Shown here: positions 1,674 to 4,036 of the stretch, piece by piece
Numbering within the stretch: position 1 is the stretch's first letter
Layout of the letters: each line of letters starts with the position of its first letter
Virus record (IMG/VR): IMGVR_UViG_2671180637_000009
DNA: 4,211 nucleotides
Strand: one strand, 5' to 3'
Source: a virus
Taxonomy: Duplodnaviria > Heunggongvirae > Uroviricota > Caudoviricetes
The notes under the pieces: generated by a model
Databases searched by the model: none
Told to the model about the DNA's origin: nothing
Seen by the model: only the letters and a program-made list of their open reading frames with translations
Position numbers and translations under genes: made by a program

Positions 1674-1703
1674 ATAAACGACAAAACCGCCCGCAGGCGG
1701 TTT
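1671..1703 (-). terminator. Intrinsic-terminator-like hairpin in the I-J intergenic region (perfect 8-bp stem, 4-nt loop, then a U-rich tract on the coding strand)
   Basis: Plus strand 1684-1703 is aaaccgcc-cgca-ggcggttt, a perfect inverted repeat. On the minus (sense) strand it reads AAACCGCC UGCG GGCGGUUU followed by UGUCGUUUAU. Lies 19 nt after the I stop and ends ~10 nt before the J ATG. Confidence 0.5.
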
Positions 1704-1721
1704 CACATAAAACATTTTGCA

Positions 1722-2363
1722 TCAGCGACCAATCACCACAACCTGACCACCGTCCCCTTCGTCTGCCGTGCTGATCTCCTGAGAAACCACCCGCGACCCC
1801 ACGCGCATTTCACCGTACAGAACGGGCAGAACATTGCCCTGGGCAACCATGTTATCCAGAGAGGAGAAATAGGTGTTCTGCTTACCGTTATCCGTGGTAC
1901 TGGCTGTTGCTGTGCTGGCTTTCGGTGCCAGCATCTGTGCAACACCACCAAGTGTCATCGCCGCGCCCATTGAAAAGAGAATGTCACTGAAAGCGATACT
2001 GATTCCTGGCATCCAGATTGCCGTAGCAATCAACGCCGCACCCAACACCGCCTGAAAAACACCGCTACTTTTGGCTCCCGCAAGACGCGGAACGATGTGG
2101 ATCACTGCACCATTTGCCAGCGGCTCACTAAGACGGGATGATAATTCGTTTTCGCCTGCATCATGCCCGGCAATGCGTACCTGGTACCAGCCGTCGCTCA
2201 GTTTCTGACGAAACGCCGGAAGCTGTGTGGCCAGCGCCCGGATGGCTTCAGCACCCGTTTTCACACGAAGGTCGATGCGGCGGCCAAATCGTTGTAAATC
2301 CCCGTAAAGGCAGATGCGTGCCATGCCCGGTGACGCCAGAGGGAGTGTGTGCGTCGCTGCCAT
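1722..2363 (-). CDS. I: Tail tip assembly protein I (213 aa): N-terminal ubiquitin-like domain, central hydrophobic Gly/Ala-rich segment
   Basis: Track ORF 1722..2363 (-). Begins MAATHTLPLASPGMARICLYGDLQRFGRRIDLRVKTGAEAIRALATQLPAFRQKLSDGWYQVRIAG and ends ...EISTADEGDGGQVVVIGR, as I recall for lambda gpI. Start ATG at 2363..2361 lies inside the 3' end of K. Stop TGA at 1724..1722. Confidence 0.9.
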   Translation of the reverse strand: MAATHTLPLASPGMARICLYGDLQRFGRRIDLRVKTGAEAIRALATQLPAFRQKLSDGWYQVRIAGHDAGENELSSRLSEPLANGAVIHIVPRLAGAKSSGVFQAVLGAALIATAIWMPGISIAFSDILFSMGAAMTLGGVAQMLAPKASTATASTTDNGKQNTYFSSLDNMVAQGNVLPVLYGEMRVGSRVVSQEISTADEGDGGQVVVIGR

Positions 2364-3004
2364 TTGTCGGTATACCTCTCTCGTTTGCTCAGTTGTTCAG
2401 GAATATGGTGCAACAGCTCGCCGTCACCACAGTAAATGGCGGCATGATTCGGCACCGATGAACCAAAACAGCACAGCAGCACATCGCCCGGCTGCGCCGC
2501 TGACAACGGCACCTGATACAGCCCCGTTGCCTCCAGATTATCCAGATAGAGATTCTGACCGTTACGCCACCAGTCATCCTCACGATGAAAATCCGGCATC
2601 TCAATCCCCGCCAGATGGTAAGCGTCCCGGAACAGCGTGTAACAGTCCGTCACCCCGTGCTCAAAGCGCCGCCCGGTAAGATGCGGCACACAGCGGAACT
2701 TGTGAATCGCCCCCCGGCAGACCAGCCACCACGGCAAATCACTCTGCACCTGCAGCCGCCGGTCAGCCTCACTCAGCCAGGGCAGACCACCGGGATGACT
2801 GTGGACCAGCGCCACAATCTCACCCTGCATTTCTGCCTGCAGCCAGTCCTCCGGAGCCATCCGGAAATAATCCTCCGGCTCACCGGAAATATTCACGCAG
2901 GGAAAATATCTTTCCCCCTCCGGCGTTCTCACCACGAAGCCGCACGACTCCGCTGGCGCACATCGCCGGGCGTGCGCCAGAATCGCTGATTCTGTCTCTG
3001 TCAT
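2261..3004 (-). CDS. K: Tail tip assembly protein K, 247-aa form (JAB/MPN metalloprotease-like N-domain plus NlpC/P60-like C-domain); the classical lambda annotation starts internally at 2860 (199 aa)
   Basis: Track ORF 2261..3079 (-). I place the start at the ATG at 3004..3002 (MTETESAILAHARRCAPAESCGFVV...), 4 nt after the L stop. JAMM motif HSHPGGLPWLSEAD (HxH-x7-S-x2-D) at residues 68-81, with the candidate catalytic Glu at residue 19 (PAESCG). NlpC/P60-like Cys (TDCYT) and His (NHAAIY, LLHHIP) in the C-terminal half. The internal ATG at 2860 (MAPEDWLQ...) has GGAGGA 10 nt upstream. Confidence 0.85.
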   Translation of the reverse strand: MTETESAILAHARRCAPAESCGFVVRTPEGERYFPCVNISGEPEDYFRMAPEDWLQAEMQGEIVALVHSHPGGLPWLSEADRRLQVQSDLPWWLVCRGAIHKFRCVPHLTGRRFEHGVTDCYTLFRDAYHLAGIEMPDFHREDDWWRNGQNLYLDNLEATGLYQVPLSAAQPGDVLLCCFGSSVPNHAAIYCGDGELLHHIPEQLSKRERYTDKWQRRTHSLWRHRAWHASAFTGIYNDLAAASTFV

Positions 3005-3008
3005 GGGA

Positions 3009-3707
3009 TTACTGCGAAAGTTTGTTAATGGAAAGGAAGCCGCCAAAGTTGCCGACGTTATTGCGGAACTTACAGCCACTCAGGCATTTGCTGCATTTAT
3101 CCTTCGTGATATCGGACGTCGGCTGGTCATATTCATCCGCGACAGCCGGACCGCTATAACCGCACTCGTCACCGCGATAGGTCCAGGTGCAGGTGTTGGC
3201 CAGCATGATACGTCCCGGAAAAACAGCGCCATCCGTTTCCGTCGGCGTGGACAGTACAAAGGAGGCACTCACCGCGCTCAGTTCGCTGCACTGCTCGATG
3301 CGCCAGCGGCTGATCACCTCCTGCTCCGGATCGGCGTCACTGTTTCCGTTGACGAAGTTCACCGCATCCAGAAAACGGGCGTAAACCTTACGCCGGACCA
3401 CCGTTCCGCCGACCAGACTCTGCAGATCTTCCGCCATCCCGGTGACCATACCGTACAGGTTAGAAACCGTCAGCGTGGGGCGCGTACTGGTGCCTTTGCC
3501 ATTCAGTTCAAAACCGCTCCCCTGAATGGGATACGGCTGATACTGTCGCCCCTGCCAGGTGACCGGCTCACCTTTTTCGTTCTGCTCATTACAGAAAAAA
3601 TAACGTTCTCCACCGACCTCTGTCAGGTCGATTTCCCAGAGCACCACGCTGGCCGACTGCTCCGCACGGGTGCATTCATTCAGTGTTTCCTGCCGGATAT
3701 CCTGCAT
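3009..3707 (-). CDS. L: Tail tip protein L (232 aa) with a C-terminal cysteine cluster
   Basis: Track ORF 3009..3707 (-). MQDIRQETLNECTRAEQSASVVLWEIDLTEVGGERYFFCNEQ...SINKLSQ matches lambda gpL as I recall it. Its ATG (3707..3705) overlaps the M stop TGA (3709..3707) as TGATG. Stop TAA at 3011..3009. Confidence 0.95.
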   Translation of the reverse strand: MQDIRQETLNECTRAEQSASVVLWEIDLTEVGGERYFFCNEQNEKGEPVTWQGRQYQPYPIQGSGFELNGKGTSTRPTLTVSNLYGMVTGMAEDLQSLVGGTVVRRKVYARFLDAVNFVNGNSDADPEQEVISRWRIEQCSELSAVSASFVLSTPTETDGAVFPGRIMLANTCTWTYRGDECGYSGPAVADEYDQPTSDITKDKCSKCLSGCKFRNNVGNFGGFLSINKLSQ

Positions 3708-4036
3708 CAGTTCACCACCTGTTCAAACTCTGCGCTGAACTCAACACGCAGCATACTGACCCGCGACGACCATTTTGCGCAGGTCACCTTTATCTGCCTG
3801 TAACCATAAGGCGGCGTCCACAGAAAGGCCTTCCAGCCCCCGTGCTCAGCCAGAAACGACTCCAGTACCGTGGCCTCCTCACGGGGGACAGAAAGCGTCA
3901 CGCTGTACGTTTTCAGGTTGGCATTCAGCCCGGCAGGCGCTCGCTGGGAATAGCCATCACCAAAGCGCACCTTTCTTACAGAAGGGACCGAAGCCACATC
4001 CATACCGGGTTTCACTTTCCAGCGGAAGGTCTTCAT
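3707..4036 (-). CDS. M: Tail tip protein M (109 aa)
   Basis: Track ORF 3707..4036 (-). MKTFRWKVKPGMDVASVPSVRKVRFGDGYSQRAPAGLNANLKTYSVTLSVPREEATVLESFLAEHGGWKAFLWTPPYGYRQIKVTCAKWSSRVSMLRVEFSAEFEQVVN matches lambda gpM as I recall it. Its ATG (4036..4034) overlaps the H stop TGA (4035..4033) as ATGA. Confidence 0.95.
   Translation of the reverse strand: MKTFRWKVKPGMDVASVPSVRKVRFGDGYSQRAPAGLNANLKTYSVTLSVPREEATVLESFLAEHGGWKAFLWTPPYGYRQIKVTCAKWSSRVSMLRVEFSAEFEQVVN

Follow-up and report, generated by a model that had tools for sequence, protein, structure and literature searches.

Gene K of a phage lambda relative very probably encodes a 247-residue protein with JAB/MPN and NlpC/P60 domains, and a sequence error most likely underlies the shorter K of the lambda reference record

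The closest described counterpart of the protein studied here is gpK of phage lambda, which is needed for tail assembly and absent from virions, also according to virion mass spectrometry. A two-domain architecture with a JAB and an NlpC/P60 domain was already published for this protein under the name TAPK, and processing of TAPI by TAPK was predicted (Iyer, Burroughs and Aravind 2006; PMC1779556). [quoted passage not shown] In the reference record of lambda (NC_001416/J02459) K has 199 aa and is separated from L by a gap of 148 nt (L end 14127, K start 14276). A review of 2020 recognized only a peptidase domain, residues 52-182 of 199, in K. This single domain illustrates the effect of a truncated record.

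The window, meaning the whole analysed stretch of 4,211 nucleotides, originates from a 97%-identical relative of lambda and not from lambda itself. Its open reading frames follow the order M, L, K, I, J, in agreement with the order H-M-L-K-I-J of lambda, and the nucleotide identity to lambda is 97%. K is located between L and I-J, directly adjacent to the ubiquitin-like TAPI. By this position in the tail-tip module it is orthologous to lambda gpK (TAPK), with the same JAB and NlpC/P60 architecture. The predicted protein would differ from true lambda K in seven amino acids (positions 2, 26, 27, 45, 50, 99 and 229) and in one further residue at 241. The window has an intact K frame; in the reference lambda record the frame is shifted, because one G is missing.

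All features are encoded on the minus strand. Gene L (3009..3707), identified as minor tail protein L with 232 aa by the ORF list, PGAP on a homologous E. coli locus and the lambda annotation, ends with TAA at 3011..3009. The spacer TCCC (3008..3005) separates this stop from an ATG at 3004, which gives a K of 247 aa plus TGA (2261..3004; 28.3 kDa) and is supported by Pfam matches, the AF2 model and existing database entries. The ATG at 2860 (Met49, MAPEDW...; 2858..2860) corresponds to lambda position 14276, the classical start, gives 199 aa and encodes an internal methionine here. Read from the window, the frame contains no stop between 3079 and the TGA at 2263..2261 (272 codons). The positions of this frame, of the L stop and of both ATG codons given in the initial annotation were all confirmed. 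The stretch 3008..2861 comprises 148 nt, the same length as the L-K gap of NC_001416, and contains the 48 codons (2861..3004) absent from classical K.

The long form of K has been known before. The protein of the window is identical to RefSeq WP_139947174.1 (247 aa), and PGAP annotates a CDS of 744 nt, 4 nt past L, in the homologous E. coli locus; the same applies to phage 21 and PV340536. The 247-aa K is a re-discovery of this PGAP/RefSeq call.

On the 247-aa form, Pfam Prok-JAB (PF14464, cut-off 25 bits) reached 53.1 bits, and the match spanned positions 4-103 of the 114-position profile. The 199-aa form remained sub-threshold with 23.0 bits and covered positions 63-103 only, so that the profile search expected to find a full JAB domain in the long form alone gave exactly this result. 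The 48 N-terminal codons matched profile positions 3-51 on their own (E=3e-5); in the AF2 model (pLDDT 97 for the 247-aa K) they form helix 1 (residues 3-15) and the strands 21-27 and 30-36 of the JAB fold. A phmmer match to the solved JAB protein 2KKS extended over residues 7-105, and the NCBIfam desampylase model matched residues 3-114 of the long form only. With Foldseek the N-terminal half was assigned to JAMM1 of P. furiosus (5LD9; target TM 0.65, rmsd 2.8 A), 2KKS, Rpn11, CSN5 and AMSH with probability 1.00.

The JAMM motif E-x(n)-H-S/T-H-x7-S-x2-D (PMC300881) is complete in K. The metal-binding part H68-S69-H70-x7-S78-x2-D81 (HSHPGGLPWLSEAD, 2803..2762) is located just past ATG 2860, and E19, the putative general-base Glu, lies in CAPAESCGF (2948..2950), where it aligns with the PNEACG motif of 2KKS. 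It precedes Met49 by exactly 30 codons, in agreement with the approximate distance proposed for the residue completing the active site. These results support residues 1 to approximately 105 as a putative complete JAB/MPN (JAMM) metalloprotease domain with E19, H68-S-H70, S78 and D81; motif, profile and modelled MPN fold would all place K among the JAB/MPN+ (JAMM) proteins. The prokaryotic JAMM/MPN+ enzymes (5LD9/5LDA, the desampylase of Haloferax and 2KKS) have the canonical motif and the fold (target TM 0.65, rmsd 2.7-2.8 A) in common with K. In contrast to these enzymes, the JAB domain of K is joined to an NlpC/P60 domain. The desampylase model scored 28.7 compared with its 130-bit cut-off, therefore K is not an equivalog of desampylase.

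The presence of an NlpC/P60 domain in the 247-aa form, also suggested by the initial annotation, was verified with PF00877 (49.2 bits, cut-off 23 bits, profile positions 1-105 of 105). Profile and conserved Cys-His-His residues indicate that residues 111-224 (2333..2674) are a probable papain-like peptidase of the C40 type. Catalytic candidates are C121 (2644..2642), conserved in at least 90% of the K homologues, and the invariant H187 (2446..2444) and H199 (2410..2408). The C-terminal half matched MepS/Spr in the Foldseek search. E. coli MepS/Spr-type C40 peptidases share the full-length PF00877 match, the conserved Cys-His-His and the fold with K, but a signal peptide or cell-wall-binding module was not noted in K. 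A second gpI-processing activity instead of peptidoglycan hydrolysis was speculated for this domain (Iyer et al. 2006, PMC1779556).

The openness of the 48 codons alone is not significant, because 32% of the 48-codon windows on the K-coding strand of the window also lack stops; the significance of the extension arises from the domain match and conservation. Among 100 near-full-length cluster representatives (at most 66% identity) every alignment started at or before query residue 20, and the N-termini were mostly found at -5 to +7 residues from Met1. The residues H11 (83), P17 (89), E19 (98), C21 (93), G22 (100), N38 (100) and F47 (96) were conserved in the given number of these 100 distant homologues; E19, G22, N38 and F47 thus reach 96-100%, which answers the conservation check proposed for residues 1-48. 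For the metal-binding motif 100/100 (H68 and D81), 99/100 (H70), 95/100 (S69) and 92/100 (S78) were obtained. Column entropy was equal for residues 1-48 and 49-105 (2.54 and 2.42 bits). The dN/dS of codons 2-48 ranged from 0.12 to 0.65; compared with Citrobacter loci it was 0.41-0.48, versus about 0.15 in the NlpC/P60 half, and the higher value reflects the variable residues 1-6 and 26-32.

Frame-disrupting indels, named beforehand as an argument against the extension, are not the rule. The 247-codon frame starting at the equivalent of ATG 3004 was kept in 106 of 117 lambda-like loci; it is missing from the lambda reference, and the remaining losses concern contig ends, MAGs of low quality and pseudogenes in cryptic prophages. 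By a profile search of genome contigs with a 12-sequence K alignment, the K ATG was found within about 11 nt of an L-like stop in loci of Budvicia, Pasteurellaceae, Aeromonadaceae, Edwardsiella and Paraburkholderia. In several of these distant loci the K frame opens just 1-3 codons before the ATG. Sequence comparison therefore supports ATG 3004 as the putative family-wide start of K. In general, K is with high probability one 247-aa tail-assembly enzyme with JAB/MPN and NlpC/P60 domains, reaching from ATG 3004 to TGA 2263..2261.

In the classical model K consists of 199 aa, and the 148 nt past L are a non-coding spacer or remnant. The annotations of J02459/NC_001416, UniProt TIPK_LAMBD, DE3 and lambda imm21 follow it, and 199 aa were still used in a review of 2020, but there is next to no probability that it is correct. 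The JAB profile recognizes the 48 codons on their own; they contain invariant residues including the catalytic Glu, show dN/dS below 1 and stay in frame in the 106 of 117 loci, in line with the earlier proposal that the gap is coding; the 199-aa form falls below the Pfam JAB threshold, and a gap of 148 nt would be anomalous where neighbouring genes of the operon abut or overlap. The classical annotation had been understood as the mere choice of a late ATG. This part did not hold, since in reference lambda the upstream frame does not stay open. In NC_001416/J02459 one G is absent after 14266, and the K frame is closed 6 codons before Met49. The alignment places this loss at codon 45 of the window (GAT, 2870..2872), with GCG read as GC in the reference. 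In 1982 the missing G would have closed the frame, and annotators would have taken the next ATG, Met49. An error in the sequence is thus the most likely origin of the 199-aa lambda K and of the 148-nt gap. If, on the other hand, the reference is correct, laboratory lambda would truly carry a 1-nt deletion in K, with separate frames of 76 and 199 codons or a product rejoined by frameshifting. Two more records, OR474059 and OR974322, read GGAGGC-TATTTCC at the site as NC_001416 and J02459 do, and a PHROG family of 76 positions matches K residues 1-76, which shows that fragments of this kind occur as annotated entries in phage records. Laboratory lambda does carry a 1-nt deletion in stf. For K such a deletion is very improbable: over 13300-15600, 10 independent laboratory lambda contigs departed from the reference by nothing but the additional G, and this was equally true of DE3, KT232076, lambda imm21, PV340536 and LC730321 (48,503 bp). 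Altogether the G was present in EU078592 (DE3), KT232076, OM418625, PV340536, LC730321 and the 10 independent contaminant contigs, as in every lambda sequenced independently. At this site a dinucleotide was counted in 111 of 112 loci, and a single base in NC_001416 only. Of the two supporting records one is UNVERIFIED and an engineered strain and the other has the exact coordinates of the reference; we infer that both are reference-derived.

Alternatively, K might yield two products: the full 247-aa form from ATG 3004 and a 199-aa isoform from ATG 2860 with only the NlpC/P60 domain and a separate role. The observations on initiation sites which had led to this idea were reproduced: a GGAGG (2876..2872) lies 10-11 nt upstream of ATG 2860, with an anti-SD pairing energy of -9.5 kcal/mol, and ATG 3004 is without Shine-Dalgarno (0 kcal/mol). 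Of the 16 relatives with at least 95% identity, 15 have retained Met49, and an RBS with a 199-aa CDS is annotated in several curated records. Nevertheless, two isoforms did not receive comparative support. The 33 relatives with 85-95% identity are split between Met49 (17) and Ile at this position (16); Ile, Leu or Val replaced it in 31 of 53 relatives at 66-85%; and in the 100 distant homologues Met occurred in 12 and Ile in 65. Hence these three residues occupy the position in about half of the relatives at 66-95% and in about 88% of the distant ones, and, with Met49 varying, a short isoform lacks conservation even within the prophages of E. coli. The GGAGG is located within the codons of Pro43-Glu44-Asp45 and is dictated by Glu-Pro-Glu coding, and its spacing of 10-11 nt exceeds the optimum. 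Furthermore, the 199-aa start is inside the JAB fold, past strand 30-36, and would leave a half-domain of 57 residues, and the RBS annotations stem from the faulty reference model. Two products are thus improbable, and a functional internal-start isoform limited to the lambda clade would be less likely than an unreported omission in the reference record.

For the preferred 247-aa K, initiation at ATG 3004 may be explained by its distance to L. In the lambda late operon H and M overlap by ATGA, M and L by TGATG; coupled translation of L and K fits these stop/start overlaps. The three gene pairs have a stop and start within few nucleotides and a weak or absent downstream SD in common, but L/K has a spacer of 4-5 nt (ATCCC in 82 lambda-like loci, TCCC in 27) where the others overlap. 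Spacing and missing SD (3005..3008, 0 kcal/mol) are as expected for a putative translational coupling. Ribosomes ending L would most likely reinitiate at ATG 3004, and since this ATG is without SD, efficient initiation of K may depend on coupling to L.

The cleavage site of prokaryotic JAMM deubiquitinase-like enzymes is the C-terminal Gly of a ubiquitin-like protein with beta-grasp fold. For K, the presumed substrate is encoded in cis, as a ubiquitin-like domain joined to a tail-tip plug protein; K would hence hydrolyse a peptide bond inside gpI, unlike these enzymes with their isopeptide conjugate. Gene I (1722..2324) is the probable source of this substrate, with a ubiquitin-like N-terminal domain ending ...PRLAG, according to Pfam Lambda_tail_I, homologues and the literature (Iyer et al. 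2006, PMC1779556; PMC12908700). Based on these reports, the JAB domain of K is predicted to remove this domain at or near the ...PRLAG end. Processing of gpI is proposed to occur during tail-tip assembly, with K not retained in the virion; gpI is modelled in the virion with residues 135-223 only. The Lambda_tail_I profile begins at the Met of ATG 2324, and in diverse relatives the homologous ATG is found 55-64 nt before the K stop. ATG 2324, overlapping K by 64 nt, is likely the true start of gene I; ATG 2363 and GTG 2264 are the alternative candidates.

In the full-text literature covered, which did not extend to the main lambda reviews or the paper comparing HK97 and HK022, no text was found to say outright that position 14266 or the annotated start of lambda K is in error; the papers on MutaMouse lambda-gt10 and on the lambda interactome contained nothing on K. 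Groups using lambda DNA as sequencing control probably know the variant with the additional G. It is possible, but rather doubtful, that a single base omission, unreported and not formally corrected, has left J02459/NC_001416 and the derived entries (NP_040598, UniProt TIPK_LAMBD, DE3 and lambda-hybrid annotations) with a gpK that is truncated and catalytically incomplete for over 40 years. K cloned, modelled or mutated from the reference record or UniProt P03729 is without the catalytic Glu and one-third of the JAB fold, and Y2H or structural screens on the reference ORFeome are likewise affected. The value of these results lies mainly in database curation: fixing the reference sequence and the K model, probably also the I start, would halt the spread of the error.

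Across phage records K is annotated with 199, 211, 223 or 247 aa. The starts GTG 2932 (223 aa, RefSeq ev243) and GTG 2896 (211 aa, KT232076) were rejected as gene-caller choices which cut the JAB domain past the catalytic Glu. GTG 3079 and TTG 3046 were also rejected: both are located inside L, and other loci have a frame that is closed 7 codons before the ATG. The part of the open frame that precedes ATG 3004 (3079..3005), which runs over the end of L, thus lacks conservation.

In order, the minus strand of the window encodes the end of H, then M at 4036..3707 and L at 3707..3009, then K and I, and lastly the first part of J. It represents a lambda-like prophage, lambda itself being excluded. 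Many lambdoid phages are 97-98% identical to its K region, which was matched in 4375 of 5426 complete E. coli genomes. The coordinates of K in the initial annotation were all confirmed. No stop interrupts the frame between 3079 and its TGA at 2263..2261. L terminates with TAA (3011..3009), after which come TCCC and directly the ATG at 3004, giving 247 aa (28.3 kDa); the classical start, ATG 2860, is Met49 and gives 199 aa (22.9 kDa). The glutamate expected about 30 codons upstream of Met49 is E19 (2950..2948), exactly 30 codons away. The JAMM metal-binding motif H68-S-H70-x7-S78-x2-D81 (2803..2762) agrees letter for letter with its definition (PMC300881). The supposed gap of 148 nt (3008..2861) is as long as the one between L (to 14127) and K (from 14276) in NC_001416. 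Since 32% of the 48-codon windows on this strand are free of stops, the open frame by itself is little proof.

Domain, conservation, codon signal and frame with spacing, four concordant lines, agree that codons 1-48 are coding. The proposal that they are needed for a complete JAB domain was examined with profiles of both forms. Pfam Prok-JAB matched the 247-aa protein with 53.1 bits (profile 4-103 of 114); the 199-aa form reached 23.0 bits, under the 25-bit cut-off, with profile 63-103 only. Residues 1-48 by themselves match profile 3-51 (Pfam). With phmmer against the PDB, residues 7-105 were aligned to the JAB protein 2KKS, CAPAESCG standing opposite LPNEACG. The AlphaFold model (pLDDT 97, input of 66 homologues) places a helix at 3-15 and strands at 21-27 and 30-36. 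Foldseek matched the N-terminal half to P. furiosus JAMM1, 2KKS, Rpn11, CSN5 and AMSH, and the C-terminal half to NlpC/P60 enzymes of the MepS/Spr type. K joins a complete JAMM domain to an NlpC/P60 domain that is intact (C121, H187, H199).

The homologue search returned 2751 matches among 1.84 billion cluster representatives. In 100 near-full-length homologues of at most 66% identity, the conservation predicted for residues 1-48 was found: the alignments of all 100 begin no later than query residue 20, and their N-termini lie mostly -5 to +7 residues from Met1. G22 and N38 are invariant, followed by E19 (98%), F47 (96%), C21 (93%), P17 (89%) and H11 (83%). Mean column entropy is at one level for residues 1-48 (2.54 bits) and 49-105 (2.42 bits). 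Pairwise dN/dS of codons 2-48 was below 1 for all pairs (E. albertii 0.12, Citrobacter 0.41-0.48, Budvicia and Chania 0.20-0.28), and above that of the NlpC/P60 half. Exactly 247 codons follow from the K ATG in 106 of 117 lambda-like loci; the remainder are reference lambda, loci at contig ends, MAGs of poor quality and three pseudogenes in cryptic prophages. The K ATG of distant relatives (Budvicia, Limnobaculum, Pasteurellaceae, Aeromonadaceae, Edwardsiella, Paraburkholderia) is at most about 11 nt from the stop of an L-like ORF; in several of them the frame begins just 1-3 codons before that ATG, so that no alternative start is available. Decaying K genes with the same L/K junction were seen in cryptic prophages of E. 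coli ECMA0423 (loci L134 and L135) and S. flexneri SFBU1023 (L136), their frames stopping after 98, 35 and 113 codons.

As described before, ATG 3004 has no pairing with the anti-Shine-Dalgarno sequence, and GGAGG lies 10-11 nt upstream of ATG 2860. The suggestion of a second, 199-aa isoform from this internal start was not borne out, and a functional short form is very improbable. Met49 is kept in 15 of 16 relatives of at least 95% identity, but at 85-95% it is replaced by Ile in 16 of 33 and at 66-85% by Ile, Leu or Val in 31 of 53; among the 100 distant homologues, 12 have Met at this position and 65 have Ile. Furthermore, the short product would start within the JAB fold, and GGAGG is a by-product of coding for the conserved Glu-Pro-Glu. 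A terminator-like scan flagged a 7-bp stem, TTTCCGGTGAGCCGGAGG (2872..2889, minus strand), ending at this GGAGG; it is a consensus match only, of a frequency expected by chance. If formed in the mRNA, it would sequester GGAGG, a further argument against internal initiation. For the 247-aa K, encoded directly after L without a Shine-Dalgarno sequence, the junctions ATGA (H/M) and TGATG (M/L) suggest that initiation would proceed by termination-reinitiation coupled to L.

Upstream of 14276, the K frame of NC_001416 is open only as far back as 14258. The ATG of this record at 14133, 5 nt after the L stop, lies 143 nt (not 144) before 14276 and meets a stop after 76 codons. In NC_001416 the sequence is GGAGGC-TATTTCCGTATG, with one base instead of the two that relatives carry at this site; 111 of 112 loci with this context carry the dinucleotide, the single base occurring in NC_001416 only. 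Laboratory lambda DNA was found as short contaminant contigs of about 1x coverage in published assemblies of unrelated organisms, including Neobacillus, Pseudoxanthomonas, Shewanella, Bradyrhizobium, Enterococcus, Leeuwenhoekiella, Kitasatospora and Vibrio, and was used as independent re-sequencing. Between 13300 and 15600, ten such contigs differ from NC_001416 solely by an additional G after 14266. DE3 (EU078592), KT232076, lambda imm21 (OM418625), the 2025 lambda record PV340536 and LC730321 (48,503 bp) likewise have this G as their sole difference. Only two records repeat the reference reading: an engineered strain marked UNVERIFIED and a 'cloacal swab isolate', the latter with exactly the lambda reference coordinates. 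Thus, the 1982 sequence very probably dropped a G in the GGCG run, which gave the 199-aa K; the cause of this omission is inferred. The frameshift leaves a 76-codon ORF 5 nt after L (14133-14363; 834-1064 of the reference locus L001). The match of PHROG phrog_7305, exactly 76 positions long, to K residues 1-76 suggests that a separate family of 'unknown function' was seeded by K fragments from artefacts or pseudogenes.

Since then K has come to be annotated with different lengths: with 199 aa in lambda, DE3 and lambda imm21, with 211 aa in KT232076, with 223 aa in RefSeq ev243 and with 247 aa in phage 21, PV340536 and PGAP E. coli. WP_139947174.1 ('C40 family peptidase') is exactly the protein of the window, and the true lambda K, of 247 aa, occurs on at least 1000 contigs, under names including 'Predicted metal-dependent protease of the PAD1/JAB1 superfamily'. 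Database clusters are mostly of 247 aa with precomputed PF14464 and PF00877; the two-domain architecture and predicted function date from 2003-2006. The 247-aa K was therefore already known in substance. The result on its start is correct and of curation value, and no surprise for a lambda tail specialist. UniProt and RefSeq still use the truncated K, as does a 2020 review, which gives 199 residues with a peptidase at 52-182. The one-base error may be unwritten so far; no published statement of it was found within the limited literature searched.

Processing of TAPI by TAPK was predicted by Iyer et al. [quoted passage not shown] Cryo-EM models contain residues 135-223 of gpI only, and virions lack gpK. 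For the window, Pfam places the end of Lambda_tail_I at ...PRLAG-A, residue 97 of the 213-aa ORF, likely the cleavage region.

Annotations of gene I disagree on its start as much as those of K do, with candidates at 2363, 2324 and 2264 (minus strand) around the K stop (relatives L118, L119, L121 and L126). Diverse relatives have the I ATG (M-A-T/I-V-R-F/L-Y-G-D-L) 55-64 nt before the K stop, and in several the frame opens just one codon before it. The corresponding Met in the window, ATG 2324 (MARICLYGDL), is where Lambda_tail_I starts. Starting at ATG 2363, the counterpart of the classical lambda start, adds 13 unconserved residues; the GTGA-coupled GTG 2264 of PGAP reduces the ubiquitin-like domain to profile 26-83. 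An overlap of K and I in two frames, about 55-64 nt long, is kept family-wide. Between the I stop and the J start, at about 1706..1677 (minus strand), a GC-rich hairpin that was not among the matches of the consensus terminator scan is followed by a T-rich tail, AAACCGCC-TGCG-GGCGGTTTTGTCGTTT, and looks like an intrinsic terminator.
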